Shown: positions 2,704 to 31,360 of the stretch, piece by piece
How the letters are laid out: each line of letters begins with the position of its first letter
How positions within the stretch are numbered: the stretch's first letter is position 1
Assembly (NCBI GenBank): GCA_012798115.1
Contig: JAAZNV010000009.1
Coordinates: 10,156-74,155 of the forward strand
DNA: 64,000 nt
Origin: a candidate division WWE3 bacterium
GTDB taxonomy: Bacteria > Patescibacteriota > WWE3 > UBA101185 > UBA10185
Reading direction: 5' to 3'
Notes under the pieces: model-generated
The model's input: only the letters and a program-made list of their open reading frames with translations
What the model was told of the DNA's origin: nothing
Database searches by the model: none
Made by a program: the position numbers and the translations under genes

Positions 2704-2768
2704 AATTTATAATGATCTAAATATATTATATGCGTAAATCATTTTCAATTATAGAATAATATATACAT

Positions 2769-5700: not shown

Positions 5701-6362
5701 CATACACTCCAGAGGTTGAAGATGTGGCAGAGGCTGAATCAGTAAGTGCAGTTAGAAGCTTTTCTATAGGAGATGCAATGTCGGATGTTCAAGGGTGTGA
5801 AGGGTATGACGTAGGAATATTGCCAGCTAGAGACCCCAATGCTAATAGAGTAGCCCAAAGAGCTTACGACATAGCATCTGGACTAGAAAGAGGTTTCTGG
5901 TGTGATTTTAACCAAAGCCATGACTACCCGCAGTTATGGGATAGTGGGTGGTGGGCACAGTATGGGGCATGGGGGTTAGATGTTGAAAAAGCTAGCACGG
6001 AAGGCGCTTATAAGCTATTTTGGTGTACATGGTTAGTCATAAAATCATATCAAGAAACCACAGATGAAAACTTTCCTGTTGCTACATACGTTCCAAATAT
6101 GAAAAAGTTCTTTGAAGAAAATACAGCAAAAGGATATTCGTATACACCTAGAGATGCAATAACAATAGATGAGATTCAGTCAGGAGATGTATTGTTCTTT
6201 AAAGGCCACGTGGCAATAATATACTCAAAGACATCTGATAGTGTTACTACTGTTGAGTCTAACAATATAAAACTCTCAGTTCCAATAACAACTGCTGAAG
6301 ATGGCCACCTGCCAGGAAGTCTTGGCAGATTAGAAATTATCGGTATTGGTCATAAAAGATAA
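2769..6362 (+). CDS. Giant (1197 aa) protein: large Lys-rich coiled-coil cytoplasmic region, two central TM segments, C-terminal extracytoplasmic CHAP/NlpC-P60-like cysteine peptidase (peptidoglycan hydrolase) domain
   Basis: No signal peptide. N-terminal repeat NPLYPGY x2. Hydrophobic segments VAKLIGAVAGSTGIFAVLGPII and FALGCSLIFAPFFAAIISIVLLLGSILGG. C-terminus has Cys (FWCTW/GFWCDF) and a GDVLFFKGHVAIIYS His motif typical of CHAP/NlpC-P60 amidases. Confidence 0.6.
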   Translation: MANNPLYPGYQPGKKNDENINPLYPGYYAGQPLQRRPSPKNYLRPIEYEGDKIAQALDETEQGVLKTMNVPKWIIERVADDWKSKYKISIKPPDIETTELDDYATEDFPGAVTTLNVDPGSWKKDAKKEAVKTIKSWVKESTGFDTDNPLKTDFSDIENKVNHELWIRALGYGKPDTWLEEKTSMGVAKRVAAPFPNLSENLQKGENPLNVRDVAVWYVDDNGNKVVKKDIYHNTAAAAAEFAEQSSNPKVRDKLHSQFIANAISATNTEIQAKFRNPGIKDRSFLDKYEGDVKLFDIKTQTIDDIRNLQEKTLKGTTKEIKKSILKGAKRDSYASTWEELEIALNKASNNQKTRMKNAETLLSQGKISKEAFDKLQKSVNDYNSFLDNALDKVTGAKDGKLSPTIVLHSLTGVGEKSLVEENLFTKSIVGKLQKDAEYSMISTKPGEIGRMLRDDNLKAQGMSFSAEKISAVAYRLRREKIGQQTTEFLEAVNDPKKALERYAWNRVTSRMSPRLAAFTTGEYIENRLKKRNYFGLKVDESGIPSTLSGSKRAVRKFERFERKYGYKVDIKLEKKYFGVGKLTVRGGDQFKILNNKLLKGLDSEIDKEFLLHTLGDGKVTADMLSKKFFGKTFKDLTGGEKKEIAAFARESRAYREWVNSLSDKFGDKTKQGLFGYELFKRVKGKNDELPNGYSLTRKYAGRLEKVHKKMLEAKAKFEKSAIGKLIKIASNWREMAAEKIAELVSKLVAKLIGAVAGSTGIFAVLGPIIEKAVNFVVKEVVKRVTDFFSAVVKGDIDKAFEVLEEAAKKFALGCSLIFAPFFAAIISIVLLLGSILGGSESPIDRTADSTLIKSQTEFVSGENAVVKITKGATVKVLGTGETITNPNHFENSVLRSGLQVTYKVHVTPKITLPNGSVFFIDEVLARNEMDSWSVKNYGTTMVNPFIAGNTITYDLTPPIIIKGDKFKDSVVANTATAYTPEVEDVAEAESVSAVRSFSIGDAMSDVQGCEGYDVGILPARDPNANRVAQRAYDIASGLERGFWCDFNQSHDYPQLWDSGWWAQYGAWGLDVEKASTEGAYKLFWCTWLVIKSYQETTDENFPVATYVPNMKKFFEENTAKGYSYTPRDAITIDEIQSGDVLFFKGHVAIIYSKTSDSVTTVESNNIKLSVPITTAEDGHLPGSLGRLEIIGIGHKR

Positions 6363-6388
6363 GATGATGGTATTATAGAAATATATTT

Positions 6389-6841
6389 ATGCGAATATTT
6401 AAGGAAAACAAGATAATACTCATAGCCTTAGTTTTACTAGTAACTGTCCTCTTGCTTTTTACCCTTAAGAAAGATACTAAGAACACAGATTTAAGTAGTT
6501 ATAAGAAAACTACTAGCGAACAAAAAAAAGGACAAGCAGCAACTGACACAAGTACAGAGAACAGTCTTCCAAATGATTACGAACATGCAGAAGCTATAAA
6601 AGAACTTCTCAAAGAATATCCGTGGTACTCAAAATTACCAATAGACAATAATGAATATACAATAGTATGGGATCTTGATATAGAGAAATTTAGAATACGA
6701 TTAAAGATACCTGAAACAAGTCCTCAAGAATCAAAGGATTCTTTGATTGCAAAAGCAGTAGAAGATATAAAAACACTAACTGGAGAAGATTTTCAAAAGT
6801 ACACCTATTACGTACTATACCCAAGGACAACACAAGATTAA
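6389..6841 (+). CDS. Small N-terminally membrane-anchored protein, unknown function
   Basis: N-terminal TM (IILIALVLLVTVLLLFTL) followed by a charged domain. Immediately downstream of the CHAP protein. Confidence 0.45.
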   Translation: MRIFKENKIILIALVLLVTVLLLFTLKKDTKNTDLSSYKKTTSEQKKGQAATDTSTENSLPNDYEHAEAIKELLKEYPWYSKLPIDNNEYTIVWDLDIEKFRIRLKIPETSPQESKDSLIAKAVEDIKTLTGEDFQKYTYYVLYPRTTQD

Positions 6842-6848
6842 TACAGAG

Positions 6849-7307
6849 TTAATAAGGGGAGTCAGGAACATCTAACAAATCATTTAATGCACCAAAAATA
6901 TTGCCTAAGACAGACGATGGTGACGTTATGCTGGTTATTCCAAATATTTTAGCAACTATTATAAATATTGAAAAAAACAAAACTATCACAAAAAAACCAT
7001 AAACTGCGTATGTCCATGTCTGTTGAGCACCTTCAAGTCCCCTAGGATCCCCTGTAGCCAAAGAAGCTTTAATAACCCCGTAAGCTATTAAAGCAACTAG
7101 TACACCACCAGAAGCATAAACAAGCGTATTAAATATTCTTCCAATTATGCCGTTTATCTGATCAAGAGATGGATTGTTATCCAAATCTGCAGCAAATACC
7201 TTTAAGATAAACAATTCAGCTGTAAATAAAAATATCATTAAGCTAGGAAGTAAGGAAGATACTTTTCCATGTATAACAATTGGGCTTAATTTTTTGTCTT
7301 TTTTCAT
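6849..7307 (-). CDS. VirB2/TrbC-like pilin-type small membrane protein, paralog 1 of 4; start refined to internal Met
   Basis: The listed ORF 6849..7400 overlaps the upstream gene by 88 bp. An internal ATG at 7305-7307 gives MKKDKKLSP...VFA|AD with a long signal-peptide-like N-terminus. Two hydrophobic helices flank TGDPRGLEGAQQTWTYAVYG, the motif shared by the three neighbours. Confidence 0.5.
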   Translation of the reverse strand: MKKDKKLSPIVIHGKVSSLLPSLMIFLFTAELFILKVFAADLDNNPSLDQINGIIGRIFNTLVYASGGVLVALIAYGVIKASLATGDPRGLEGAQQTWTYAVYGFFVIVLFFSIFIIVAKIFGITSITSPSSVLGNIFGALNDLLDVPDSPY

Positions 7308-7312
7308 ATCTG

Positions 7313-7618
7313 TTATATACCATTTGCTCCAATTAACTTCACAAGAATATCCTTTAATGCAAATGCAATCAAGACGACCACAAGACCTATGACAGACCAT
7401 GTAGCAGAACTTTGAGCTTTTTTTAAGAGCTTTTCATCTCCACGGCTCATAGCAAACTGTACGAAAGCAAACGCTAAAGTAACTACAGTTATACCCACAG
7501 CTATGATAATGGCAACATTAGCAGCCAATATTACCATAGACTGAGCGTTGCCAAACCTACTTGCAGCCTTATCACCAGATGCAAAGCTTCTTACAGCTGT
7601 TTCTAATGGTTCAAACAT
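7313..7618 (-). CDS. VirB2/TrbC-like pilin-type small membrane protein, paralog 2 of 4
   Basis: 101 aa with two TM helices flanking SRGDEKLLKKAQSSATWSVIG. Gap to the downstream gene is 5 nt. Confidence 0.5.
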   Translation of the reverse strand: MFEPLETAVRSFASGDKAASRFGNAQSMVILAANVAIIIAVGITVVTLAFAFVQFAMSRGDEKLLKKAQSSATWSVIGLVVVLIAFALKDILVKLIGANGI

Positions 7619-7644
7619 GTCATTAACCTATTAAATAAATAAAG

Positions 7645-7986
7645 CTAGTCGTTACCACCCAACAGATCGTCTTTTTGCCCCACAAGATTAAGTATTACAC
7701 CCTTAATAGCATAGACAAGGAACAAACCAACTCCGCCAATAACTGCATAAGTAACCCATTTCTGTGCTTGTTCCGTTGCAACCTTATCACCTTGTGATGT
7801 AATAAATCTAATAAATCCCATTGCAAGGAATACCACTACTAATGCTAGTCCAAGAATTATGACTAAGTTTGTGATCCACACAAAAACACTATTCAAATCA
7901 GTAAGTCTACCTCCTAAAGGATTGATAGGCTCTGTAGGAATATCAGTTGACGCAGCAAACACTTTTGTAACAAGTAAATCAAACAT
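7645..7986 (-). CDS. VirB2/TrbC-like pilin-type small membrane protein, paralog 3 of 4
   Basis: 113 aa with two TM helices flanking SQGDKVATEQAQKWVTYAVIG. Confidence 0.5.
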   Translation of the reverse strand: MFDLLVTKVFAASTDIPTEPINPLGGRLTDLNSVFVWITNLVIILGLALVVVFLAMGFIRFITSQGDKVATEQAQKWVTYAVIGGVGLFLVYAIKGVILNLVGQKDDLLGGND

Positions 7987-8017
7987 TTTATTACACCTCC
8001 TTAAATTTAATTAAACC

Positions 8018-8815
8018 TTAAATACTAATATTTCCTCCAATAAGTGAGTTGATTATAACTCTCAATATTGCAGCTGACAACAAAACAAAAATTATACCAA
8101 TAATAGCAGCAGTAAGTTGTCCTTGAGCATCTTGTGTTTTTTTAGGATCTCCTTCACTAGTCATTAGCATATAACCAGATATAACAACATAGCAAAAGCC
8201 AATAAAAAGTGCACCATAATATAATATCCTTGCAACAGGTGATATTAATTCTTGCCAGTTGGTGATCTTTGGACCTTTATATGAATCATTCAGAGATGGA
8301 CCACAAGTATTTATATTACATGTCATACCTGTACAACAATCAGATGGCTTTTCACATGGTTCTCCATATTTAGCACAAAAGAGATCTACAATTTCCTTTT
8401 TACAGCAAACTTCATTACTACCACAATTTCCTATAGCAATCTCCTTACACTTACCAGTTGGAACACATTTATGGGTACATTCTGTAATTAAAGCCCAACA
8501 TTTATCTGCTGTGTTACTACAAGAATAGCTAACCTGTTTGTAAAGGCTACCTGGGCTAGTGGGTGAACAGGTATAGCCTTTATCTGTACACTCATTTCCT
8601 GTTGGCTTCACCTTGCAACAAACGTTATTCATAGAACACGCACCTAAAAGGATGTGCGTAGTAGGGCAAGTAACAGCACTATAACATGTTCCACCTTCAT
8701 CTTTACACTCCTGCGGAGTTGTTACTGATGCACCATAAGACTTAGTTGAGGACAGAAAAATTATGAACCCTAAGAGAAATGAAAATGTAAGACACTTTGA
8801 AAATCTAGTTTTCAT
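8018..8815 (-). CDS. Secreted cysteine-rich (knottin/defensin-like repeat) domain fused to a C-terminal VirB2/TrbC-like pilin module (paralog 4 of 4)
   Basis: Signal peptide MKTRFSKCLTFSFLLGFIIFLSSTKSYG|A. About 170 aa with more than 20 Cys arranged in repeated C..C..CC blocks. The C-terminus (two TM helices flanking SEGDPKKTQDAQGQLTAAIIG) is paralogous to the three preceding genes. Confidence 0.5.
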   Translation of the reverse strand: MKTRFSKCLTFSFLLGFIIFLSSTKSYGASVTTPQECKDEGGTCYSAVTCPTTHILLGACSMNNVCCKVKPTGNECTDKGYTCSPTSPGSLYKQVSYSCSNTADKCWALITECTHKCVPTGKCKEIAIGNCGSNEVCCKKEIVDLFCAKYGEPCEKPSDCCTGMTCNINTCGPSLNDSYKGPKITNWQELISPVARILYYGALFIGFCYVVISGYMLMTSEGDPKKTQDAQGQLTAAIIGIIFVLLSAAILRVIINSLIGGNISI

Positions 8816-8880: not shown

Positions 8881-10674
8881 ATGATCTCTTGCCCACATAA
8901 AAAAAGTATAAGGAAGGGTATAACCTTCATAACAATACTTTTATTTGTAATTCCTATGTTACTTTCCCTTAAGATTCAAAACACGTATGCAGAAGATAAG
9001 TGTAAAAACATATCGGACAAGGATGATCAAACAGAATGTTATGAAAATCTAGAAAAGGAAACACAAGCTAAGTTAAGTAGTACAAAATCTAAATTAGATA
9101 ACACATTAAATTCAATCAATCAACTATCTTCTCAACTAAATGTAACACAAGCACAACTCAACGATGTCCAATCAGATATAAACGATATAAAAGAAGAACT
9201 AGATCAAATAAATTCTGTATTAGAAGACAGAAATAATAAATTATCGGAAAAGATAACATTCAGAAACAACTTACTTAGAAACTACTCTAAGAAGAATGTG
9301 GTAAACGACTTGGAACTATTCTTTTCTAGCAACAAGGAAACAAACTTGAGTGGTTTTCAAACAGCTACTTTTATATATGCATTTAACAAAGCAACTAGTG
9401 GGAATATTTTAAAAATAATAGGAGCATTAAACTCTGAAATTAGAAACTATGAAAAAAACAAAGAAGAATCAGAAGAAATTAAGAAAGACCTAGAAATTGC
9501 ACAAAACAACTTAATATCTTTAAAGAAGGATTTAGATGCAAGAAAAGCTAATGCACAAAGCGAAGCAAATAAACTAGAAGAACAAAAAACAGAATACGAA
9601 GAAAAGCTAGAAGAGCTTCAAAGTAAAATATTAAGCTTAAAATATGGTGATGAAAGTGGTTCCGTTGGGGATTATGAGTCACCTTCATCCAAAACACCAT
9701 CCCCTCCGTTTGACAATGCATTTGCAGCATTTTCTTATGGAGCATATACCCATTACAACGGCATGAGCCAATATGGGGCAAAAGGCAGGGCTGAAGATGA
9801 AAAAAGCTATAAAGATATTATTAAGTTTTATTATGGTGAAAGTGTAAAAGAAAAAGATGACTTTCCAGAAAAAATATGTGTTGAAGGTTACGGAAATATG
9901 AGTTTTCAAAAATATCTTTACGGTATAGCTGAAATGCCAAGCTCTTGGGATGAAGATGCTCTAAAAGCTCAAGCAGTAGCTGCTAGATCTTATGCATACA
10001 AAAGAACCAAAGGTGGGGGGTGCATATGCACTACCCAAAGCTGTCAGGTCTTTTCAAAAAGCAAGTCTGACAACCCACCAGGAAGTTGGAAAAAAGCTGT
10101 CGATAACACTGAGAATGAAATAATAGGGGGAGATACAGGAAAATCAGGGTATGGCTGGTATTCATCAACAACGGGAGGATATCTTAACCAAGCAGGGTGG
10201 GACTTAGATGGAAAGTGGCCTGGACAAGCCTACGAAAAAAAAGCAGGATCACCATGGTTCTATAAAGCATGGTATACAAAAAGTTATAGTGATTCATCAA
10301 CATGTGGTCATTCACATCCATGGCTTACAGAAGAAGAAATGGCTGACATTATTAACTCATGGGTGGTTTATACAAAAGGATCTTCAAGTGAGAAAAGTCA
10401 TATTACCCCAAGAACAGAAAGTTGTTGGGGAGGTGATCCTTACTCTCTTGATGAAATGGCATCAAAAGCAGATAAATATGGGGATAAATATACAAACGTA
10501 TCAAAAGTTTGGGTTGATATAAGCAATTCTGGATATACATCAAAAGTTCACTTCCAGACAAATAATGGAGAAGTATCTATTGATGGAGCAACATTCAAGA
10601 CAGTCTTTAACTTAAGAGCTCCTGGATACGTTGCAATAAGAAGCAGACTCTACGATCTTGAATTAAGAGACTAA
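8881..10674 (+). CDS. Membrane-anchored coiled-coil protein with C-terminal SpoIID/LytB-like peptidoglycan-remodelling domain
   Basis: N-terminal TM/signal, then a long Q/N/E/K-rich heptad-like region. The C-terminal domain has AQAVAARSYAY and CICTTQSCQVF, resembling the SpoIID/LytB signature (AQAVAART..., TTxCQVY). Confidence 0.55.
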   Translation: MISCPHKKSIRKGITFITILLFVIPMLLSLKIQNTYAEDKCKNISDKDDQTECYENLEKETQAKLSSTKSKLDNTLNSINQLSSQLNVTQAQLNDVQSDINDIKEELDQINSVLEDRNNKLSEKITFRNNLLRNYSKKNVVNDLELFFSSNKETNLSGFQTATFIYAFNKATSGNILKIIGALNSEIRNYEKNKEESEEIKKDLEIAQNNLISLKKDLDARKANAQSEANKLEEQKTEYEEKLEELQSKILSLKYGDESGSVGDYESPSSKTPSPPFDNAFAAFSYGAYTHYNGMSQYGAKGRAEDEKSYKDIIKFYYGESVKEKDDFPEKICVEGYGNMSFQKYLYGIAEMPSSWDEDALKAQAVAARSYAYKRTKGGGCICTTQSCQVFSKSKSDNPPGSWKKAVDNTENEIIGGDTGKSGYGWYSSTTGGYLNQAGWDLDGKWPGQAYEKKAGSPWFYKAWYTKSYSDSSTCGHSHPWLTEEEMADIINSWVVYTKGSSSEKSHITPRTESCWGGDPYSLDEMASKADKYGDKYTNVSKVWVDISNSGYTSKVHFQTNNGEVSIDGATFKTVFNLRAPGYVAIRSRLYDLELRD

Positions 10675-10730
10675 CACAACTAGAGCCTAACTAACTATTT
10701 GGTTATTTAGTTGATGGTATAATAACCTCA

Positions 10731-11294
10731 ATGAGTACATCAACTTTACTTAAATCATTCATCAAAAACCCACCAAATACTTCCTATCAAGGAAGAGATA
10801 ACGATGAACGCATAATACTTGTTATTAGGAAAAGTTTAGTTGCTGTTTACAAATGGGTACTTATGTTCATTTTGCTCTTAATCATTCCAATATTTTTAAT
10901 GCCTTGGTTAGCAAGTTTGCAATACAACAACTACTTCATATTCACTGCTGGATTCATTCGCTGCTTAACTGCCTTTTGGTACTTATTCTCTATTGGTTTT
11001 ACTTTTCAAAACTTCTTGAATTGGTATTTTGAAGTGCTTTTAGTTACAAATAAGAAAGTTGTAGATATAGACAACTCTTGTACCAATATTTCAGAAGCCA
11101 CCTTAAACAACATTCAAGATGTAACATCAAAAATAAGCAAAGGATGGGAACAAATATTAAATATTGGGTCGATATATATTCAAACAGCCGCAGAAAGAGA
11201 AGAGTTTGAGTTTGATACTATAGATAATCCTTCATTTGTCAGGGATGCTATAGCAGATTTAATTTCAAAACATAAAGGACACCATGGACATTAG
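10731..11294 (+). CDS. Membrane protein with two TM helices and bacterial PH (bPH_2/YdbS-like) domain (tentative)
   Basis: Two adjacent hydrophobic helices followed by a ~100-aa soluble domain with a His-rich tail (HKGHHGH). Confidence 0.35.
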   Translation: MSTSTLLKSFIKNPPNTSYQGRDNDERIILVIRKSLVAVYKWVLMFILLLIIPIFLMPWLASLQYNNYFIFTAGFIRCLTAFWYLFSIGFTFQNFLNWYFEVLLVTNKKVVDIDNSCTNISEATLNNIQDVTSKISKGWEQILNIGSIYIQTAAEREEFEFDTIDNPSFVRDAIADLISKHKGHHGH

Positions 11295-11526
11295 TAATTA
11301 TTCTATACAACAAATAATAAAAGTTGGTTCTGGAACCATTGAAATCTTCGTATTTTTAATGATGGTTCTTTACTTATTCTTTGCATTCATCTTAATTAGG
11401 AAACTAAGGATAATGAATTTAAATCTTAAAACCCCTTACAACAAGTTATTCTTGCTCCTAGCAAGGGTACACTTTGTGGCTTCCTTTATTGTTATTATTC
11501 TTACGTTTATAACCATAAGAAGGTAG
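11284..11526 (+). CDS. Small two-TM membrane protein
   Basis: 80 aa with two hydrophobic segments. Overlaps the upstream gene by 11 nt. Confidence 0.3.
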   Translation: MDISNYSIQQIIKVGSGTIEIFVFLMMVLYLFFAFILIRKLRIMNLNLKTPYNKLFLLLARVHFVASFIVIILTFITIRR

Positions 11527-11527
11527 A

Positions 11528-13375
11528 ATGATTAAAAAACTAACTGCAAAAACCCAAGAACTAAATCCAAAATTACCTCAATACAGTAATTCATTTTCAA
11601 AATGCGTAATCATCAAACCAGAGACACAAGAGTTGCTATTAAAAAAAGGCACTGTATACAGTGTGTTTGATGTATCAGGAGAATCTAATTTTGATACAGA
11701 GCTAGTAATTAAAGTGATAAATGATGTCATAAATAACCTCTACTTCCAATCAGAGAGTATATCTCCAATACAATCAATGGAAAAAGCTATTGTAGAAACC
11801 AAAGAAAAAGTTCTTCAACTATCCAACGATACATTAACTTCCAACCCGCAGAGCATTAACTTAAACATGATAACTGCAGTTTTATGGGGAAGCGTCTTGT
11901 ACATAATAAAATTTGGAGGTGCTAAAGGATATCTAATGAAAAACGGGGAAATATCCCCCTTAGAGATGATATCGGAAGGAAACTTCTCTACTGCTTCAAA
12001 GGTTGTTGATGAAGACGAAGTACTAATATTAGCTACAGAACATTTTGAGAGATCATTTCCCCCAGAAAGACTCTTAGCAACAAGCATTGGTGAAGGAGAC
12101 TTAGATCCCAATCAAGCATGTCTTCTCATGAGACTGATCATAGATACTACATTTTCAGATAATGAAGTGGTTGACTTTGGTTTGGGTGATGCAGTTTCAA
12201 AGAATAAAAACAGGGTAAGAGTAGAAAAACTTACAAGTATTATCGAAGATGCTTCAAGATGGATATTAAAATCTATTAAAAAAGTATGTGGAGTATTTGT
12301 TGCATTAGGAAAACTTTTAGCGGATGCTATTTCAAAAGTACTCCCGAGAAGGAAAGCTGTACTCTTAACAAGAAGTATAAGTCAATTATCAGGAAAAGGT
12401 GGAACAAAAACAAAAAGCTGGTTGCCTTTAAGCTTAATGTCAATATCTCTTGCTTTTCTGGTGTTTTTTATCTTAAGATCTACTGTACTTAAAAGCACCA
12501 ACAAGGAAAATATGGAAAGAAAAAATACAGGACAACAAACAGTTGAAACCAGTACAAAAGAAGTTGTAAATACAGAAACTGAAGACAAGTCAAAAGATGA
12601 GCAATATAAAATTAAACGAGTATCTCCGGAAGTATTTTATGACTTGAAAATTACGGATCAATCAGTAGAACCAAGTGAAATTGAAATAGTTGGAGACAAA
12701 GTTGTTATTGTAGATAAAATTACTGGGAAAATATATGTATCAGATATCTCAACTCCAAACTTTAAGCTTGGGGTAAATACGTTCCCTGGCATTAAATCAC
12801 TAGCATCTTCAGAAGACCTGTTGTCCTTTAATGATAATGAAGGCTACAAGACCTACAGTATTAAAAACTCTACCGTAATAAGCTCATATAAAGTAGAAGG
12901 TTTATCACTAACATTCCCATATGCAGGTTTTATATACTCAGTATCTTCAGATATTTTATCCAAGAATACAGAAAAAGATGGGAAACTAGATGGAGTAGTT
13001 TGGGCCCAAAGCCCAGATTTTGTAGATGCTAAGTCGATGTCAATTGCATACAGCATTTATATATTGAAGAAAGATGGAAACCTTGTTAATTATTCAGGCG
13101 GGTCTAAAACTAGCTTTGCCATTAACGGCCTTGAAAAACCTCTCTCCGATCCTTCAAAGGTTAGCACGAATATTGATTTTGAATACATTTACATAGCAGA
13201 TAAAGGAAATGAAGCTATAGTGGTTATTGATAACAAAGGAAATGTAGTAAAACAGTACAAGTATGAGGATAGTAGTACATGGAGTGATATTAAGAGCATT
13301 GCTATATCTTCGGATGAAAAGACCATCTTTGTTTTAAACTCAAGCAAAATATATAAACTAAATATAGAAAACTAA
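11528..13375 (+). CDS. Bitopic protein: N-terminal degenerate PP2C/SpoIIE-like phosphatase-like domain, one TM, C-terminal extracytoplasmic beta-propeller-like domain (tentative)
   Basis: The N-terminal region (VFDVSGES...ITAVLWGSVLYIIKFGGAKGYLMKNGE...DEDEVLILATEHF) follows the PP2C block pattern. TM is WLPLSLMSISLAFLVFFIL. C-terminal repeats resemble propeller blades (IYVSD, IYIADKGNEAIVVIDNKGNVV). Confidence 0.3.
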   Translation: MIKKLTAKTQELNPKLPQYSNSFSKCVIIKPETQELLLKKGTVYSVFDVSGESNFDTELVIKVINDVINNLYFQSESISPIQSMEKAIVETKEKVLQLSNDTLTSNPQSINLNMITAVLWGSVLYIIKFGGAKGYLMKNGEISPLEMISEGNFSTASKVVDEDEVLILATEHFERSFPPERLLATSIGEGDLDPNQACLLMRLIIDTTFSDNEVVDFGLGDAVSKNKNRVRVEKLTSIIEDASRWILKSIKKVCGVFVALGKLLADAISKVLPRRKAVLLTRSISQLSGKGGTKTKSWLPLSLMSISLAFLVFFILRSTVLKSTNKENMERKNTGQQTVETSTKEVVNTETEDKSKDEQYKIKRVSPEVFYDLKITDQSVEPSEIEIVGDKVVIVDKITGKIYVSDISTPNFKLGVNTFPGIKSLASSEDLLSFNDNEGYKTYSIKNSTVISSYKVEGLSLTFPYAGFIYSVSSDILSKNTEKDGKLDGVVWAQSPDFVDAKSMSIAYSIYILKKDGNLVNYSGGSKTSFAINGLEKPLSDPSKVSTNIDFEYIYIADKGNEAIVVIDNKGNVVKQYKYEDSSTWSDIKSIAISSDEKTIFVLNSSKIYKLNIEN

Positions 13376-21591: not shown

Positions 21592-22011
21592 GATATAGTG
21601 GTTCTTATTTACGATTTAACAGTGGGCAATGAACTATTTAATAAAGAGATAATTTATATTTATAATATAGCATTAATTTCTTACTATTAAATGTTTGTTT
21701 TCCACATTGGCATTCAATATATTTGAGTATATATAATACGTAGTACTAGATATAGGAGGTGTGGATATGTGCATTAACTGATTAATTGCTCTTGCTTAAA
21801 CTTATACGTAAATCAAGCATTGAAGACAACTTTTTTTGTTATTAATCCAACTAATAGTCACAACTAAACACCTAATTTCCTTTAGCTACCTTCTGTAACA
21901 TCTGTTGATAAAGCTATGTTTAATGTGCAAAACATTGTGGATAAATACCTTAGTTTATCAACACTTGTGATGCGGCGTTAACTTTCCCACATCTTAGTTT
22001 ATTTGCATACA
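21592..22011. promoter_or_regulatory. Candidate chromosomal replication origin (oriC): AT-rich spacer with multiple DnaA boxes downstream of dnaA
   Basis: Perfect TTATCCACA (as TGTGGATAA) at 21936-21944. 1-mismatch boxes at 21903-21911, 21955-21963, 21760-21768 and 21698-21706. Very AT-rich stretch 21641-21695 as a possible unwinding element. The largest non-coding gap in the window. Confidence 0.5.
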
Positions 22012-24571: not shown

Positions 24572-25015
24572 TTATTCTATTCCTTTATCATCGTAGTACA
24601 TTCTTAAAATATAAGCAGCTGCTAAATGGTCGTTTGTCTTTCTATGCTTCTCTGAAATTCCTAAATCTAATGCTTCCTCAAACGCTCTTGCTGAAGACCC
24701 ATACTCATTTTGAGTCTCAACAGGCCTTTTTGTGTTGGTTTTTAATATTTTTGCAAATCTTCTTATTTCAATAGACTCTGCAGTATCTTTTCCTTCCATT
24801 GTCAATGGCAGACCTAGAATAATGAGCTCTACTTTATTCTCAATAACTACCCTGTTTATTCTTATAAGAGCGTTGTTAGTGTTTTTAGCTGAAATTACTT
24901 CTAAAGGAGTAACTAACCCATTTCTCCCAAGTGCCAAGCCAATATTTGCTCTACCATAATCCACTCCAAGTATAGTAGCAGAATCGTATTTAATCTTTTT
25001 ACTATTCATTATCAT
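24572..25015 (-). CDS. ruvX: Putative pre-16S rRNA nuclease / Holliday-junction resolvase-like YqgF
   Basis: ILGVDYGRANIGLALG...ELIILGLP...AAAYILRMYYD; RuvX/YqgF blocks. Overlaps the upstream gene by 4 nt. Confidence 0.75.
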   Translation of the reverse strand: MIMNSKKIKYDSATILGVDYGRANIGLALGRNGLVTPLEVISAKNTNNALIRINRVVIENKVELIILGLPLTMEGKDTAESIEIRRFAKILKTNTKRPVETQNEYGSSARAFEEALDLGISEKHRKTNDHLAAAYILRMYYDDKGIE

Positions 25016-26565
25016 TCCTTCTCTATAGTAATTTGTATTCTGCTTATATCTTTGGGTATGTTTCTAAAAAATGGCACTGCTGGACTAAGACGAAACTCAT
25101 ATGAGTTAACGTTCTTAATTGATCCTAATAGACTCTGTGCTTCTGCTGCAGATTTTCCTCTAAGTTGGTTTTTAATATCTTCCTCATTAATATTAGGAAC
25201 AATAAAAGTTTTAAGAGTAACTTGAATGTCTGCTTCTTGTGAAGTTAAAACACTACTGGTAGAGCTTCCAAGTACCTCTACTTTAACTTCTCTGTCTTGT
25301 TCTGATAGTGCAAACCCTTCTGGTATTACATCTTTAACATATTCATCTATAAACTTATTTAGTTCACTTTCCATGTATGCTAAACCCTCTCCACTTACAG
25401 TTTGGGTGAGAGATATTTTTTCTGCTTCATCCCCAATATTTTTGGTAAAACTATCTTTAATTATTTGAACTTGAGTTGAGCCTGCAACTAGCTTTTGTCC
25501 AATACCCAACTTACTCTTGATGTCCTCCTCAGCCTTTTTTGTACTAACCAGTTTCAGCTCAGTAGATATATTGTTTCTATCATCTGATGTAACTATTTTT
25601 ACTTCCTCACTCTTTCCACCATCTATATCACTTTTGGTCTTTGCAGCAAGTTCACTCTTTTTATATCCAGAAACTTCAAGTGATTTTCCATCATCTATAT
25701 TAAAAGATTCCCCAACACTAGAAGCAATGATGTCCACAGTTGCTTCTCCTGCAATATTGACCTCAGGATTAGAAGAATTTTCTGTGCTAGCTGGAATATC
25801 AACATCGTCTTTAAGATAATAATTCAAGTCTGTTGATTTTCCTTCGTAAACAACCTTATCTCCTTTATCAAGACTTATTTCTTTGGATGTTTTATTGTAC
25901 AAGGTTATCTCTCCTTCAGCCTTTTCCCCAACTGTTTTTGTGCCAGTAGTATCCTTTTCTAAGGTTGACTCTATATTCGTTGCTATAGTAGTTCCTCTAA
26001 GAACCTTGTTTTGTACGCTTGTTGAAGCACTATTTTTAACTTTTATAGTTACACTTTTTGTTAATGCTTGTGAGTGAACAGATATTTTTACACTTGCTTT
26101 TGGGGCCTTTAAACCATAGAAAATGAAACTAGCAAGTAAAGTAAGTAATATAAGAACTGGAGTGAGCACCTTCTTCTTTCCACTTGTTAGTTTTCTTATA
26201 AAATTTAGCGGTGCAATATTAATCTTTTTAGATTTGAAAATATTCATGGGAAGAGTGATCACTTTTTGTTTTGATTGCTTTGCTGTAGCTTCTATTAATG
26301 TCTGGTCTTCTTCTATGTATGGTTGTTCGGGACCTCCTCCTATAACTGACGAAAGGAGGCTATTTCCTATTTCATCATCAGTTGCAAAATCAATACTTTT
26401 TTCCATCTTATCAGCTTCATACTGAATAAGCTTAATATTTAATGAGTTTTCAAATAAGACAGATTCTTTTGGGATGTTTACCTCGATATTTAAATCAGTA
26501 ATGCTTTTTATCTTGCTTATTGCGGTAACAACATCATCGTTGGGTTGTAAATATAGTTTAATCAT
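25012..26565 (-). CDS. Bitopic membrane protein: ~125-aa cytoplasmic N-domain, one TM, ~370-aa Ser/Thr/Lys/Glu-rich beta-rich extracytoplasmic domain; unknown function
   Basis: TM VLTPVLILLTLLASFIFYGL. No family recognised. Last-but-one gene of an operon with the actin-like and FtsK/HerA-like ATPase genes. Confidence 0.4.
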   Translation of the reverse strand: MIKLYLQPNDDVVTAISKIKSITDLNIEVNIPKESVLFENSLNIKLIQYEADKMEKSIDFATDDEIGNSLLSSVIGGGPEQPYIEEDQTLIEATAKQSKQKVITLPMNIFKSKKINIAPLNFIRKLTSGKKKVLTPVLILLTLLASFIFYGLKAPKASVKISVHSQALTKSVTIKVKNSASTSVQNKVLRGTTIATNIESTLEKDTTGTKTVGEKAEGEITLYNKTSKEISLDKGDKVVYEGKSTDLNYYLKDDVDIPASTENSSNPEVNIAGEATVDIIASSVGESFNIDDGKSLEVSGYKKSELAAKTKSDIDGGKSEEVKIVTSDDRNNISTELKLVSTKKAEEDIKSKLGIGQKLVAGSTQVQIIKDSFTKNIGDEAEKISLTQTVSGEGLAYMESELNKFIDEYVKDVIPEGFALSEQDREVKVEVLGSSTSSVLTSQEADIQVTLKTFIVPNINEEDIKNQLRGKSAAEAQSLLGSIKNVNSYEFRLSPAVPFFRNIPKDISRIQITIEKE

Positions 26566-26574
26566 ATATTTTAA

Positions 26575-27777
26575 CTAAATTCCTAGTATCTCCTTATAAA
26601 TAATAGACGCAGCTACTGTATACAACCAATCAGAACTTAATAACTCTCCTGTGGCATAAGATACTTTTGATAAATCAGATAAGGATAATTTGGCTATCTC
26701 TAGACTAGCTTTAAATGGAATTGTTTTAGTCCATGGTTCTTCTTTTAGAGCGTTTTCAATATCTGGTATTTCAGCTCCACATCCGGATAGAAATATTTTG
26801 TTTGAAAACATTTTTATTCCAGAAAAATCTTCAAATAGCAACTTAATTCCATCAATCCACAAGCTTGTTATTCCTTTCAAGCATTTCTCGACGGTTATCC
26901 TCTCACTTTCTGAAAGTTTTTCTTGGTTGTACATATTTAATACATTTTCAGCATCTTTTGGTGATAAACCCATGTTTAACCCCACTGCTTCTATGAAGTG
27001 TGTATGTCCAATATTTAGGGTTTTAGATGAAACTATGCCACCACCAAATACAACTCCTACATCAGTTGAGTCTTCTGCAATACTAATTAAGACAAAATCT
27101 AGAATGTTTTTTGGAGGGTTTTTAAACCATTCAACAACTGAATACATCTGAGATCCTAATGCAATTAATTCAAGGCCTGATTTTTTAATTATTCCTTGAA
27201 TGGATTTAACGTGAAAACTTGGAGCAAAAGAATTGTACACTGCAGCTTCAATTGTCTCCCCACGCTGGCCCTCAAGTATTGCTACATTTTGATTATCTAT
27301 TTTTAAATAAATGTCAGACGTTGTTATTGAATCTAGTTCTAAATCTGGATCTCCAGTGTTCTGAAGAACTTTGTTATGTGCTTGAATATATGAAGCTTCT
27401 GTAATTCTGGAGTAAAGTTCTTCCACCTCATCAGCCTTAATAGGATCTGTTGTTGCTCTTTTTAGTCTTACCGTTGTAGTAAGTCCTAGTGTAATTCCGC
27501 CATCAATAGCAATTATTGTTTTTCTTGTTTTATCCTCTAAATTTTCTGTTGCTTTACTAACAACCTCTTTTATTGCTTCGCTAACCCCTTCTTTATTAAT
27601 AACCATTCCATTCCTTACGTAACCTTTCTCTAGGTTCTTTTTTCCTGACCCAATTATTTTAAATAAATCCCCATCGAAAAAGAATGCAACACATCTAACA
27701 TCCTTAGCATTTACATTCAAAGATAAGAACTTATTTGTGTTGGTATCTACTTTTTCTAAAAAAGGCAGATTAAACAT
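26575..27777 (-). CDS. Actin-fold ATPase of the FtsA/PilM family
   Basis: N-terminal glycine-rich phosphate loop region and a GHTHFIEAVGLNMGLSPKDAENVL block resembling the FtsA/PilM GG...AE..K motif; 400 aa. No ftsZ nearby. Confidence 0.5.
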   Translation of the reverse strand: MFNLPFLEKVDTNTNKFLSLNVNAKDVRCVAFFFDGDLFKIIGSGKKNLEKGYVRNGMVINKEGVSEAIKEVVSKATENLEDKTRKTIIAIDGGITLGLTTTVRLKRATTDPIKADEVEELYSRITEASYIQAHNKVLQNTGDPDLELDSITTSDIYLKIDNQNVAILEGQRGETIEAAVYNSFAPSFHVKSIQGIIKKSGLELIALGSQMYSVVEWFKNPPKNILDFVLISIAEDSTDVGVVFGGGIVSSKTLNIGHTHFIEAVGLNMGLSPKDAENVLNMYNQEKLSESERITVEKCLKGITSLWIDGIKLLFEDFSGIKMFSNKIFLSGCGAEIPDIENALKEEPWTKTIPFKASLEIAKLSLSDLSKVSYATGELLSSDWLYTVAASIIYKEILGI

Positions 27778-27801
27778 TAGATTGATTATACAAATAGTAA
27801 G

Positions 27802-30210
27802 TTAAAACGGAAAGTTTGTTCGGTTTATGCTTGGTTCTTCTTGTGAGGCAGGTTCTTCTGAAAGTCTTCTGTTAATGAACTCTTCAACTTCTTGAACAGG
27901 AGTTCCATATTTTATTCTTGATAATTCTCTAATCTCGTCTGCTACCCTAGGATCTTTTTTGACAGAAGATAGGTCATTCCAATCTATCCATAAAGAAAAG
28001 GGTGGGGAAGGCTGCCCTCTTACTAAAAGCCTCATATAAGCATTTCCTGTTGGAAGATTGCTTAAATCTTGTTTTGTAAATGTTGGTGCAAACTGAGGTT
28101 CTAAAAATTCTGCATCTTCTACACCGACTCTAAAAGAACATATTGTTCCAACGTTTCCAAACACAGCTTCTTTTATATCTTCTTCAAGTTGTTGAATAAA
28201 CTGATGTGCTACAGTCAAATTAAGCTTGTATTTTCTAGCTTCTGAAAGGATAGTAGCAAAATCAGGTGTGGCAAAATTTTGAAACTCATCTACATACAAG
28301 AAGAAATTAGGAAAATCTCCATGAAGCTTGTGTCTTCTTAACGCTGATGCAAGTATTCTTGGGACGAACAATAATCCGATAAAGTTGGAGTTTTCTTCAC
28401 CAATTTTCCCTTTTGCAAGGTCCACCAAAAGTATTTTCTTCTCAGCCATTATTTGGTCAAAGTTGAATGAGGATTTAGGTTGTCCAATTATATTTCTCAT
28501 AGTTTTATCTGTTGTAATTCTGTCGAATTTAGACACAAAGTATCCCATTGTTTCGCCTTTCCTACTTGCTGTTGTTTTAGCCATCTCATCTGTCCAGTAT
28601 CTTCTAACAAGAGGATCAGTTAGCTTGTCTAAAAATTTCTTGGAGTAGCTCTCGTCAATAAATAATCTCAAAACATCTATCATTGTTGCTTCTGGATCAA
28701 CCATTGCAGTAAGCATCACATTTCTAATTGATCTCTCAAGAAGAGGGCCCATTATTCCTTGCTTGTTTGGATCATATAGTTTGTAGAGTAGGGCAATAAA
28801 TGCATTTATTATCATATTTTTTTCTTCATCAGTTTGAGCTTCAAGTAAGTTGAGTCCTAAAGGCCTTTCCGTATCTGCAGCATCAAACAAAATGACATCC
28901 TCTTTCCTTTCTGGGGGTATTTTTTGAAGTAGCTCGTCAATGTCTGTTCCATGGGGGTCAATAATTGCAACCCCTTCTCCTCTTTTAATATCTTGGAGTG
29001 CGCACCACATTAAGAATTGAGACTTTCCAGATCCTGTTTGTCCAACTATATACATATGTCTTGTTCTATCTTCGTCAAGCATATGAATTTCCTTTTCCAC
29101 TCCTCTAAATATACTTTTCCCTAAGAAGATTCCTTCATCTGGTAGCTCTACTGGAGCAGAGGATTTTCTAGCGATAAGCCACAAAATATTGGGTGTACCA
29201 ATGTCTTTGTTTGGAAAATGAAATACTGTAGCCATTTCTATATTGTTTAATACAGAAACGTTTGAGTATAACTGTATGCTAAGCATTGGAATGTTTATGT
29301 TTTTAATTCTTAATCTTCTGTATATGAAATCATTTACGTATTTTTTGGGGGATATTAAGAATCTTCTTACAAATCTGTTGTATGAAACATCTGTAAACTG
29401 TTCAAATGCCCCTACCATATTATGCATTTGAGAATCTGCAGTCATCTTATCACTTGCAACTGATACTATTCTTATTTTTATATAAAACCCTGGATTGGAT
29501 ATCTTGTTCTCAACTCCTTCAAGAAACTTTTCATCTATATTTATCTTCTTGTCTGGATTTGCTGCTTTTGCTCTAACATTAGATATAAATCTTCTACCTG
29601 CCATTCTCCAATCATCATCTGCAGGTTGGATTACGTACTGAACAGCAGTTACTTGATCCACCCTCATTTTACTCATAGCTGATGTTATAGGGCTTAAAGA
29701 ATCACTCTTTAAATCTTCATATTGTTTTATTGGATAGAAAGCAGGTCCTTTGAGCTTTAACTCTGTAATTCTAGTAAATTTTCCTCTATCCCATACTTCA
29801 TGTGGTTTTACTATATCTACTTGAGCAGCAGGGTACGCTGCATTTATTTGTTTTTCCACAAGAGATGCAATTTCATCAGGTGTTACGACGTAAAAAGCTA
29901 TTCCTTCTGCCTTAGAAACTATTTCAAAGGATATTCTATATTGCCCTGTAAATAATGCTTTCCAAAAACCTTTTTTAAACCCAATGAGGCTAGAAAACAT
30001 ATGTTCTGCGGCTTTTATTTCTATCTCATTGTCATTAGGTAAAAGAACTTGAAAAAACGTTAAGTTATATTGTGTTTGTTTCTCCTTTCTTTTCCTAAGC
30101 CATGAAGCAACTCCTAGAGTGATAAATGTCAATAAAAACACAGAAACTATCAAGTAAATAGAAATCCAAAATGTATTGTATAAAGTGTTATTTACTTCCA
30201 TGGGCAGCAA
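27802..30210 (-). CDS. FtsK/HerA-superfamily P-loop ATPase of the T4SS VirB4/VirD4 (TraC/TraG) type, N-terminal TM anchor
   Basis: One N-terminal TM. Walker A HMYIVGQTGSGKSQ followed by GEGVAIIDPHG. Walker B FLYVDEFQNF then SEARKYKLNLTVAHQ, matching the VirB4/VirD4 pattern DEF...aRKyg..l.l.tQ. Confidence 0.6.
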   Translation of the reverse strand: MLPMEVNNTLYNTFWISIYLIVSVFLLTFITLGVASWLRKRKEKQTQYNLTFFQVLLPNDNEIEIKAAEHMFSSLIGFKKGFWKALFTGQYRISFEIVSKAEGIAFYVVTPDEIASLVEKQINAAYPAAQVDIVKPHEVWDRGKFTRITELKLKGPAFYPIKQYEDLKSDSLSPITSAMSKMRVDQVTAVQYVIQPADDDWRMAGRRFISNVRAKAANPDKKINIDEKFLEGVENKISNPGFYIKIRIVSVASDKMTADSQMHNMVGAFEQFTDVSYNRFVRRFLISPKKYVNDFIYRRLRIKNINIPMLSIQLYSNVSVLNNIEMATVFHFPNKDIGTPNILWLIARKSSAPVELPDEGIFLGKSIFRGVEKEIHMLDEDRTRHMYIVGQTGSGKSQFLMWCALQDIKRGEGVAIIDPHGTDIDELLQKIPPERKEDVILFDAADTERPLGLNLLEAQTDEEKNMIINAFIALLYKLYDPNKQGIMGPLLERSIRNVMLTAMVDPEATMIDVLRLFIDESYSKKFLDKLTDPLVRRYWTDEMAKTTASRKGETMGYFVSKFDRITTDKTMRNIIGQPKSSFNFDQIMAEKKILLVDLAKGKIGEENSNFIGLLFVPRILASALRRHKLHGDFPNFFLYVDEFQNFATPDFATILSEARKYKLNLTVAHQFIQQLEEDIKEAVFGNVGTICSFRVGVEDAEFLEPQFAPTFTKQDLSNLPTGNAYMRLLVRGQPSPPFSLWIDWNDLSSVKKDPRVADEIRELSRIKYGTPVQEVEEFINRRLSEEPASQEEPSINRTNFPF

Positions 30211-30514
30211 ATCCTTTTAATGCTTCTTTTTCTTCTAGTGAAGCTAGGCTAGTAATTTTATCTGTTTTATCTAGCAGCTCCGTTTTTGTTTTTGGCTCTA
30301 ACTCTTCTGTTCCTATGAGCGATGAGATAGAATGATCCCCATTACTGTATTCTTGCTGGGGTACTTCTTCTTTTGCTATTGTTAGTACTGTGTCTGATTC
30401 TGCGCTACCTCCATCTTCTGGTATTATTCCAGAAACAAATTCTCGTGAAGCTGCTTGTTGTATGGAATCAGATTCTTCTTGTGGAACTTCACCAATAACA
30501 GGTAGTTTAATCAT
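30188..30514 (-). CDS. Small acidic, low-complexity protein; weakly supported
   Basis: 108 aa rich in E/S/T, overlapping the ATPase start by 23 nt. No motif. Confidence 0.25.
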   Translation of the reverse strand: MIKLPVIGEVPQEESDSIQQAASREFVSGIIPEDGGSAESDTVLTIAKEEVPQQEYSNGDHSISSLIGTEELEPKTKTELLDKTDKITSLASLEEKEALKGFAAHGSK

Positions 30515-31257: not shown

Positions 31258-31360
31258 AGGCAGTTTAATAAGTTAAGTATAATCCTGCTTTTAAATTATA
31301 GTCAATGTTTTGATATACTCTTAAGAGTTTAGAAATTTAAAATTGGAAGGGGTGTTTTAA

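Follow-up and report, generated by a model that had tools for sequence, protein, structure and literature searches.

A coupling-protein-like ATPase and an actin-fold pair near the replication origin of WWE3 bacteria are probably two separate Patescibacteria modules

A large part of bacterial diversity belongs to the Patescibacteria, or candidate phyla radiation (CPR), in which functions have still to be assigned to most core, lineage-enriched proteins. Type IV coupling proteins (T4CPs) and FtsK are related DNA-dependent translocases, and actin folds of the PilM/GspL type dock secretion ATPases. Relatives of both kinds meet in a 64-kb segment (the window) of a candidate division WWE3 genome (contig JAAZNV010000009.1; ~33% GC), where five close-packed genes pointing in the same direction on the minus strand, ~1 kb from dnaA, encode a small acidic protein, an 802-aa membrane-anchored ATPase, a 400-aa actin-like protein, a 517-aa bitopic membrane protein and the nuclease RuvX. 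The ATPase family has been described before, as a T4CP homologue: Quinonero-Coronel et al. 2025 (PMC12102498) counted 5,713 T4CP homologues across 2,918 Patescibacteria genomes, with virB4 nearby for only 148 of the homologues, and raised exaptation of these proteins as a possibility. Counterparts of the actin-like protein and its bitopic partner are listed, undiscussed, in one transposon-sequencing (Tn-seq) table. We met no account in the literature of how either family is built, of pairing rules or of the joining of the two units in WWE3, and no work specific to DUF8128 (the N-terminal domain of the ATPase), to CPR FtsK/Xer or to a CPR baseplate J pair.

We read the locus as a WWE3-specific juxtaposition, with probable co-transcription, of two separately conserved and vertically inherited Patescibacteria modules near oriC, and not as one machine (probability about 0.6). 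Module A would consist of the small acidic protein and the DUF8128 ATPase, and module B of the actin-fold protein, the bitopic protein and RuvX. An earlier note on this DNA, made from the sequence alone, had proposed a single module for DNA transfer, uptake or segregation, which the neighbourhoods outside WWE3 do not bear out. We clustered the neighbours of 81 ATPase loci with 10-kb flanks. Genes for the actin-like protein, a 517-aa-like protein or RuvX lay within 10 kb of the ATPase in 0 of 78 non-WWE3 loci, even with the actin-like profile run at E<=10, and the ATPase neighboured the actin-like pair and RuvX in WWE3 loci only. The ATPase was also absent from all four non-WWE3 contexts of the actin-like pair. 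On these two results, the modules are independent outside WWE3.

Within WWE3, the order ATPase, actin-like gene, ~510-aa gene and RuvX is kept in six genomes, and since it is kept while the actin-like protein has diverged to 34–43% identity, the order is not due to chance. Two of the six genomes have one or two unrelated genes standing between the ATPase and the actin-like gene. The neighbourhood conservation that the earlier note had named as a check is real inside WWE3 and fails outside it, where the ATPase and the pair stand apart. The contexts beyond WWE3 read alaS - actin-like - 516 aa - RuvX - MltG (locus L085), alaS - actin-like - 485 aa - RuvX - Sua5 - DivIC-like (L088/L089), L25 - AAA - actin-like - 674 aa - GroES - GroEL - six pilins (L087), and SpoIID block - SmpB - ... 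- actin-like - 278 aa + 450 aa - FtsE - FtsX (L090/L091). A homologue of the 517-aa protein lies directly 3' of the actin-like gene in every context, these four (E 1e-96 to 6e-32) and the six from WWE3, and in L090 it is split into two genes, one for the cytoplasmic half and one for the membrane/ectodomain half. The actin-like protein and the Baseplate-J-like bitopic protein are an obligate pair. RuvX, correctly named in the earlier note (PF03652, 95.9 bits against a cut-off of 29.2, 3.3e-27; TIGR00250, 67 bits against 43.25), comes after the pair in WWE3, L085 and L088. It belongs to a widespread ancestral alaS-ruvX-mltG neighbourhood, goes with the pair and not with the ATPase, and is a passenger.

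The ATPase motifs quoted in the earlier note are present and invariant across 93 homologues: GQTGSGKS (residues 390–397), IDPHG (417–421), VDEFQNF (640–646) and TVAHQ, ending at Q670. An AlphaFold2 (AF2) model built on the alignment of these homologues (pLDDT 86.8, pTM 0.77) has a single transmembrane (TM) helix at residues 16–34, inside a long helix 3–45. An alpha/beta N-domain at ~50–340, assigned to DUF8128 by precomputed Pfam, is followed by a RecA-like domain at ~360–745 that holds an all-helical insert at ~461–628, and then by a conserved two-helix element (754–784) and a disordered tail with a terminal invariant Pro-Phe. By lineage, the tail reads '...PF' in WWE3 and 'GFPPxF' in Dojkabacteria, is Gly-rich in some Levybacteria and is missing from most Microgenomatia. 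Profile matches to the ATPase are weak and centred on the P-loop. In Pfam, DUF87 (26.8 bits, cut-off 23.2) and TraG-D_C (25.6, cut-off 22) exceed their cut-offs, T4SS-DNA_transf (19.8, cut-off 20.1) and TrwB_AAD_bind (18.3, cut-off 20.5) fall just under theirs, FtsK_SpoIIIE (17.6, cut-off 24) matches around Walker A alone, and Ftsk_gamma gave no match. The best NCBIfam models were TraD and the VirD4-like CD1115, at 46 bits against cut-offs of 250–650; CagE_TrbE_VirB and the NCBIfam VirB4 models gave no match at E<=0.01.

Structure comparison of the ATPase gave 29.2 for the C-terminal domain of a monoderm VirB4 (4ag5), 27.2 for DptH, 26.6 for TrwB, 23.4 for both DotL and HerA, ~18 for EccC, 17.4 for TcpA and 16.5 for FtsK. 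The protein therefore sits in the VirB4/VirD4 branch, where the earlier note had put it as a TM-anchored member, and is not an FtsK orthologue. That note had named an ordinary FtsK with four N-terminal TM helices as the finding that would count against it; we rejected an FtsK orthologue on the one TM helix, the missing gamma domain and the weak structural similarity. VirB4 identity was rejected too: in Southlakia epibionticum, VirB4 (SEML1_0008) is distinct from SEML1_0293, the protein that carries the three Pfam signatures found in the window ATPase. Because these are separate proteins, we file the ATPase with the T4CP-like family and note its VirB4-like two-domain layout. As for HerA, the DUF87 match is above its cut-off, and there is no NurA-like neighbour. 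Separately, phrog_5156 (824 positions) matches ATPase residues 231–781 at 6e-81, so close relatives occur in phage/prophage protein collections.

The ATPase family has 2823 database matches, of which the best 120 are all at least 61% identical, and it is encoded in at least 596 GTDB species. Among loci L002–L081, identity to the window ATPase is 62–76% in WWE3-type loci, ~43–48% in Microgenomatia and ~40–42% in Dojkabacteria, and this fall with taxonomic distance fits vertical inheritance. A tblastn search against plasmids returned 579 records at 23–28% identity over 75–88% of the ATPase length, N-domain included. These come mostly from Bacillus, Streptomyces and haloarchaea, and are labelled DUF87, TraM-recognition or conjugative DNA transfer proteins; on one B. 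subtilis plasmid, the homologue occupies the place expected of a T4CP, with TcpC/D/E-like genes downstream of it. Among the 81 loci there is a single duplication, a tandem of DUF8128 ATPase genes (819 and 858 aa) in an unclassified metagenome-assembled genome (L080, 1140–6469).

Downstream of the ATPase, a XerC/D-type recombinase (Phage_int_SAM_1 plus Phage_integrase) lies within 6 kb in 26 of 51 loci and a DivIC/FtsB gene (PF04977) in 22 of 51. Both neighbours span Microgenomatia and Dojkabacteria, while the upstream contexts vary. NrdR-NrdJ-PduO is found upstream in many Microgenomatia, and a SpoIID-bPH-like-c15-SmpB block (c numbers are neighbour clusters) adjoins the ATPase in Dojkabacteria and some Levybacteria, the ATPase directly preceding the block in the latter. 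Five Dojkabacteria-type loci (L052, L064, L074, L075, L079) have 1–6 tandem pilin genes, followed by SpoIID-c17-c15-SmpB, directly upstream, the pilin arrays being on the ATPase strand and 6–8 kb off. We counted only these HMM-supported arrays, which makes pilin arrays within 10 kb a feature of only 5 of the 81 loci. Levybacteria arrays proposed by a hydropathy heuristic were rejected because the genes, on inspection, encoded unrelated membrane proteins and did not share one strand. In 38 of 74 loci from different classes, a small open reading frame (ORF) lies right against the ATPase start (−60 to +30 nt). In the window this protein is acidic, as previously noted (22 D+E and 10 K+R in 108 aa), and the motifs 'VDKTxxITxL' and, at the C-terminus, 'HGxK' recur among its WWE3 orthologues. 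Homology of the ATPase-preceding ORFs between classes is not demonstrable and their conservation is positional only; a hidden Markov model (HMM) of the Microgenomatia ORFs (cluster c2) gave no match to the WWE3 acidic ORFs.

The FtsA/PilM-like fold that the earlier note had assigned to the 400-aa protein is borne out by several comparisons. In a profile search against PDB sequences, PilM and FtsA were equal (~1e-9) and well above MreB. The AF2 model (pLDDT 89.5) matched FtsA (3wt0, 7q6i, 7q6d) in Foldseek at ~1e-23 with TMq 0.70–0.72, PilM at ~1e-22 with TMq 0.58–0.66, and MreB, ParM and EutJ at 1e-9 to 1e-12, and it has the 1C (SHS2) subdomain of the FtsA/PilM class. Curated models place it below cut-off on both sides (FtsA TIGR01174, 36.2 bits against 175.85; PilM TIGR01175, 47.1 against 133). 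An FtsA-type amphipathic membrane-targeting helix is absent: the chain ends with the fold (helices 382–397, pLDDT 83–90) and has no linker. At the other end, the first 13 residues are disordered and carry a conserved 'MxxLPF' peptide. WWE3 members have the DxG phosphate-1 motif replaced (e.g., 'LNVNAKDV'), and 'LD[IL]G' is retained in all four non-WWE3 members (L085, L087, L088, L090), which suggests that ATP hydrolysis may have been lost specifically where the actin-like gene adjoins the ATPase.

A HMMER scan of 1.8 billion representatives gave 257 clusters of the actin-like family at E<=1e-30 and 845 at E<=1e-10, and this full search disproved the confinement to WWE3 that word-indexed searches had indicated. 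An alignment-based scan of viral contigs found no relative. Neither ftsZ nor division and cell wall (dcw) genes neighbour the actin-like gene in any of the ten contexts, and a PilM-type context is absent as well, no pilus genes adjoining the window gene; the L088 contig has a separate PilO-like gene elsewhere. One family member (P0312, 808 aa; L086, 422–2848) is fused to an N-terminal TIR_2 domain, with HicB-like and HTH genes adjoining, and may be a defence-type derivative.

The bitopic partner has one hydrophobic segment, at 133–151 by hydropathy scan and ~143–163 by eye and alignment. A conserved ~70-aa cytoplasmic N-domain precedes this segment (~133–163 overall), and a beta-rich ectodomain with a putative Baseplate_J-like barrel and a conserved C-terminus follows. 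Baseplate_J (PF04865, cut-off 21.1) scores 23.5 in the L085 orthologue, 20.9 in L088 and less in the others, with no match in the window protein, which UniRef names 'Baseplate protein J-like'; orthologues also give weak GlxA beta-barrel matches. We dropped a PilN identity, suggested by a 'MIKLYLQP' start resembling 'INLLP', on finding that the motif is unconserved and that the N-terminus is the ~70-aa domain.

Southlakia epibionticum offers a comparison with genetic data, in which genes were matched to the window by order and annotation, not by direct alignment (Wang et al. 2023, Tables S1 and S2). Its gene order is alaS (SEML1_0657), a 'PilM' FtsA-domain SHS2 protein (0656), a baseplate J/gp47 protein (0655), RuvX (0654) and MltG (0653) (Wang et al. 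2023). This is the order of L085, and L088 shares its alaS-pair-ruvX part; 0656, 0655 and 0654 match the window's actin-like, bitopic and RuvX genes, and in WWE3 the T4CP-like ATPase unit stands upstream in place of alaS, with mltG not downstream. The 0655 protein was parsed as SpoIIAA-like at residues 6–105, then beta-barrel and gp6-like domains, and the core and Patescibacteria-enriched flags apply to 0655 and 0656 alike (Wang et al. 2023). Tn-seq shows a fitness cost, with 0655 called NE/ES/ES and 0656 NE/NE/GD (Wang et al. 2023); part of the 0655 effect may come from polarity on ruvX, itself NE/ES/ES. Also present in this genome are an essential canonical ftsA-ftsZ (0174/0175), a type IV pilus pilM (0104) and a complete, essential ftsK (0096) (Wang et al. 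2023). Because these stand beside alaS-0656-0655-ruvX-mltG, the actin-like family appears, if the match holds, to be a third paralogue in Southlakia alongside divisome FtsA and pilus PilM, and we infer the same status in WWE3. For module A, SEML1_0293 (921 aa) has the window ATPase's exact Pfam trio (PF10412, PF12696, PF01935) and is flagged core, Patescibacteria-enriched and non-essential (NE/NE/NE), and SEML1_0008 is a 612-aa VirB4 with no Pfam match in an essential type IV secretion system (T4SS) cluster beside dnaA (Wang et al. 2023). A distance of ~350 kb separates the genes matched to module A from those matched to module B, and the two sets differ in Tn-seq phenotype.

What each module does can be proposed with less assurance. 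The ATPase would be a membrane-anchored, probably hexameric translocation ATPase, descended from T4CP/VirD4-like coupling proteins of monoderm and archaeal conjugation. Its disordered Pro-Phe tail may be a docking peptide, and the acidic protein encoded upstream is a candidate partner. Tentatively, and at somewhat less than even odds, we see it as a substrate-coupling or accessory ATPase for a relaxase-less chromosomal T4SS and pilus that docks through this tail and works with the acidic protein. The T4SS-like locus at 1348–8815 of the window is possibly related to it. That locus has no ATPase of its own, Pfam scans found no VirB4 in the 64-kb window, and the 802-aa protein is the window's only T4SS-type Walker-A ORF. 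The earlier suggestion that the ATPase is the motor of this pilin locus gains from the pilin arrays upstream of it in Dojkabacteria and loses from Southlakia, where the counterpart is dispensable and the T4SS essential; that the counterpart is dispensable, and that virB4 usually lies elsewhere, speaks against the ATPase being a core motor. In module B, the cytoplasmic N-domain of the bitopic protein would tether the actin-fold protein to the membrane, and the Baseplate-J-like ectodomain would reach into the envelope, a logic like that of PilM-PilN, FtsA-FtsN and MreB-RodZ. Because its contexts include alaS, ruvX, mltG, ftsEX and divIC, module B may be an envelope/growth- or division-related scaffold apart from divisome FtsA and pilus PilM.

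Several observations weigh against keeping the two modules separate. The WWE3 arrangement is stable, tight and probably one transcript across deep divergence, and the modules may be functionally coupled in this lineage; the DxG loss in WWE3 might reflect a new role beside the ATPase. Pairwise links also connect the parts. Module A neighbours B in WWE3, DivIC in Microgenomatia, and the SpoIID block and pilins in Dojkabacteria and Levybacteria; B neighbours the SpoIID block in L090, pilins in L087 and DivIC in L088. Such links could mark one dispersed system instead of independent modules; they exceed our chance expectation for four extra contexts, and functional linkage is not separable in them from decay of an ancestral oriC-proximal block. 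The orthology of Southlakia and window genes rests on gene order and annotation, and the proposed T4SS role is weakened by a non-essential SEML1_0293 in a genome with essential T4SS genes and by most T4CP homologues not being near virB4. Taken furthest, the ATPase with its acidic protein, the actin-like/Baseplate-J pair, the SpoIID-bPH-c15 block and the VirB2-like pilins would be scattered components of a single trans-envelope machine peculiar to Patescibacteria, namely a type IV secretion pilus with an acquired PilM/PilN-like actin-fold platform. This would account for the varied pairwise neighbourhoods in WWE3, Dojkabacteria, Levybacteria and other CPR, and we consider it unlikely. Also unlikely is a compact version, in which ATPase, actin-like scaffold, bitopic protein and RuvX form one apparatus for DNA transfer, uptake or segregation, with the pair as a PilM/PilN- or GspL-like platform that docks a hexameric ATPase and possibly powers the pilus at 1348–8815. 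Its attractions are the tight operon conserved throughout WWE3, the known docking of secretion ATPases by such actin folds, the conserved Pro-Phe tail and N-terminal LPF peptide, the network of pairwise neighbours across classes and a T4SS-like locus lacking an ATPase; these are outweighed by the absence of ATPase and pair from each other's neighbourhoods outside WWE3, the insertions between them in two of six WWE3 genomes, the distance and differing phenotypes of the Southlakia counterparts, and the far slower evolution of the ATPase (identity at least 61%, vs 34% for the pair).

Division offers two further readings. The ATPase might be a DNA pump at the division site, an exapted coupling protein that acts as an FtsK-like helper in dimer resolution or segregation with Xer and the divisome, joined in WWE3 by the FtsA-like protein and RuvX. 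The Xer and DivIC/FtsB genes recurring downstream despite variable upstream contexts, the oriC-proximal position of the family, an identity that tracks taxonomy with conservation unusual for a conjugation protein, and the kinship of T4CPs with FtsK would all suit such a pump. We find it improbable all the same, given the complete essential FtsK of Southlakia and its dispensable T4CP-like protein, and the adjacency to Xer and DivIC may be mere inherited synteny of related classes. Alternatively, the 400-aa protein could be the divergent divisome FtsA of WWE3, with the 517-aa protein as an FtsQ/DivIB-like partner in a displaced fragment of the division genes. The Joint Genome Institute (JGI) labels some family members 'cell division ATPase FtsA', the fold is marginally nearer FtsA than PilM, the phosphate-2 region reads 'EDST', close to the 'EDVT' of S. 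aureus FtsA, and ftsEX or divIC lies nearby in some lineages. We nevertheless judge this quite improbable: the membrane-targeting helix is missing, ftsZ is never adjacent in ten contexts, the TIGR01174 score is far under its cut-off, the partner's ectodomain is Baseplate_J-like and not POTRA, and Southlakia has the same-order module on top of its canonical essential ftsA-ftsZ. The earlier note's view that the actin-like protein is not the divisome FtsA is thus very probably right. It is hardly credible that the locus is left over from a conjugative or integrative element, or that it serves in anti-phage defence with a HerA-like ATPase at its core. Plasmid relatives of the ATPase, a PADLOC mad8 match (1.7e-15) with weak HerA matches, the phrog_5156 match and the TIR-fused actin-like protein point that way, and are met by a housekeeping context beside oriC without relaxase, integrase or repeats in the window, by an ATPase spread over at least 596 species with identity tracking taxonomy, by the core, Patescibacteria-enriched flags on the Southlakia-matched families and by the lack of any PADLOC match for the other four proteins. 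Two juxtaposed modules remain our preferred reading.

The five genes form the tight minus-strand cluster that the earlier note had described, with every ORF in place and overlaps or gaps of 4–24 nt (Table 1). The acidic ORF overlaps the ATPase by 23 nt (14 nt with an ATG start), the ATPase and actin-like genes are 24 nt apart, the actin-like and bitopic genes 9 nt apart, and the bitopic gene overlaps ruvX by 4 nt. A TTG start gives the 802-aa ATPase; NCBI uses the ATG at 30201 (799 aa, NMB91737.1). The upstream end of the operon lies farther out than had been proposed: the transcription unit probably has seven genes, 31257 to 24572, because two small upstream genes are kept in place in WWE3 and promoter-like sites lie at 31324–31276. 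These sites, just 5' of the first gene, are the best minus-strand matches; they are consensus-based sigma-70-like matches, and such sites in the region do not exceed shuffled expectation. A motif scan found no terminator-like site within the unit. The DUF948-like gene has a positional orthologue with a faint DUF948 match in L001, genes of 77–88 aa hold its position in L082–L084, and the YtxH-family gene is conserved in position in WWE3 loci. These two genes share a probable transcription unit with the actin-fold gene, and PDB 9a51, an integrative model of the B. subtilis Mbl-YtxH complex, is a precedent for contact between YtxH and an actin fold.

Table 1. Features of the locus and of the T4SS-like region in the window
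Feature	Position	Strand	Basis or remark
VirB6-like polytopic protein	1348–2703	−	signal peptide + 6–7 TM helices
CHAP-domain protein, 1197 aa	2769–6362	+	2 TM helices
150-aa N-terminal-TM protein	6389–6841	+	
Three VirB2-like pilins	6849–7400, 7645–7986, 8018–8815	−	PF18895
SpoIID-domain protein, bPH-like membrane protein, 615-aa TM protein	8881–13375	+	
AT-rich intergenic region	21592–22011		upstream of dnaA; probably oriC
dnaA	22012–23415		flanking gene
Zn-ribbon ORF, 74 aa	24347–24571	+	four CxxC pairs; convergent with ruvX
RuvX/YqgF nuclease, 147 aa	24572–25015	−	PF03652 + TIGR00250, both above cut-off
Bitopic partner of actin-like protein, 517 aa	25012–26565	−	hydropathy scan, alignment, orthologue domains
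FtsA/PilM-class actin-fold protein, 400 aa	26575–27777	−	AF2 model + Foldseek + profiles
T4SS-family (T4CP-like) membrane-anchored P-loop ATPase, 802 aa	27802–30210	−	profiles + AF2 model
Small acidic protein, 108 aa, NMB91738.1	30188–30514	−	stop overlaps ATPase start; candidate ATPase partner
YtxH-family protein, 134 aa	30571–30975	−	PF12732 at 6.7e-18, above cut-off
DUF948-like protein, 93 aa	30976–31257	−	one N-terminal TM helix; probable first gene of unit
Promoter-like site	31276–31324	−	two overlapping sigma-70-like matches, 10/12; 5' of first small gene

On one side, the unit is flanked by dnaA, a HAD hydrolase gene and the Zn-ribbon ORF, whose place is taken by ORFs of 60–83 aa in other WWE3 genomes, and on the other by dnaK-grpE-hrcA-lepA-murJ. 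Since the AT-rich region upstream of dnaA (20–22 kb bin, GC 0.28) is probably oriC, the seven-gene cluster lies within ~10 kb of the replication origin; proximity to oriC has also been described for T4SS genes in other Patescibacteria. Pfam scans of nearly all larger ORFs in the window gave no match to FtsZ, FtsQ, Xer, VirB4 or a pilus ATPase, in line with the earlier note, which had seen no ftsZ, ftsQ or pilus ATPase nearby. The SpoIID block of the window adjoins the three VirB2-like pilin genes. In general, this block consists of a SpoIID-domain protein and a bPH-like protein, often then a ~79-aa TM protein, and a 590–920-aa TM protein, usually followed by SmpB. It is kept across WWE3, Dojkabacteria and Levybacteria (L008, L013, L018, L030, L052, L064, L074–L076, L079, L090), next to pilin arrays, next to the DUF8128 ATPase or, in L090, near the actin-like pair.

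The analysis tells apart two core Patescibacteria families and identifies each by its structure. The first is an apparently coupling-protein-derived ATPase turned conserved chromosomal gene; the second appears to be a third paralogue of the FtsA/PilM class, whose Baseplate-J-like membrane partner is obligate. In the one CPR bacterium open to genetics, the partner's counterpart already shows a fitness effect, which makes the pair a target for work on CPR envelope or division biology. The locus also carries a caution, in that a tight operon conserved within one class can be a lineage-specific juxtaposition and not a functional unit. The single-machine reading, if true, would be much more interesting.

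Among known systems, T4CPs (VirD4, TrwB, TraD, DotL) resemble the ATPase in their N-terminal membrane anchor, in an FtsK/HerA-superfamily P-loop domain with an all-helical insert (here Walker A/B, GQTGSGKS and VDEFQ, plus an inserted all-alpha domain) and in TraG-D_C, DUF87 and, just under its cut-off, TrwB_AAD_bind signatures. The Patescibacteria T4CP homologues are, in addition, like it chromosomal, away from virB4 and without a relaxase; the 64-kb window encodes neither relaxase nor VirB4, and its pilin/VirB6-like locus is 17–26 kb away. T4CPs usually have two TM helices followed directly by the ATPase domain, whereas the window protein has one, plus the ~290-residue DUF8128 N-domain. It also scores under the curated VirD4-model cut-offs, is far better conserved than plasmid T4CPs and is preceded by a small acidic ORF. 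VirB4 proteins (TrwK of R388, Thermoanaerobacter VirB4) share the two-part layout, a large N-terminal domain and then a C-terminal ATPase domain with the VirB4 fold, and TrwK aligns over the full length with Foldseek at 9e-15, with a low TM-score. In contrast to VirB4, the ATPase matches no VirB4 sequence model, carries a TM anchor and has no VirB3-, VirB6- or VirB8-like genes adjacent, and the Patescibacteria VirB4 is a separate protein of ~610 aa in the T4SS cluster. Like FtsK of the FtsK-XerCD system, the ATPase is a membrane-anchored member of the same superfamily, often encoded beside a Xer-type recombinase and a divisome gene in Microgenomatia and Dojkabacteria; unlike FtsK, it has no four-TM domain, alpha domain or gamma domain, its structural similarity is much weaker, and canonical FtsK coexists with a T4CP-like protein of the same Pfam signature in at least one CPR genome.

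Module B departs from the PilM and FtsA systems in having neither a pilus nor an ftsZ context and, in WWE3, a degenerate nucleotide site. Its partner protein differs from PilN in the unconserved INLLP motif, and from PilN, FtsN, RodZ and GspL in its ~70–100-aa globular N-domain (SpoIIAA-like in the Southlakia counterpart) and large Baseplate_J-like ectodomain. What it shares with PilM-PilN, FtsA-FtsN, MreB-RodZ and GspL is an actin fold that would be tethered by a bitopic partner: the window protein has the 1C/SHS2 actin fold without a membrane anchor of its own, and its gene always precedes, and often overlaps, that of a bitopic protein with a cytoplasmic N-terminal element.

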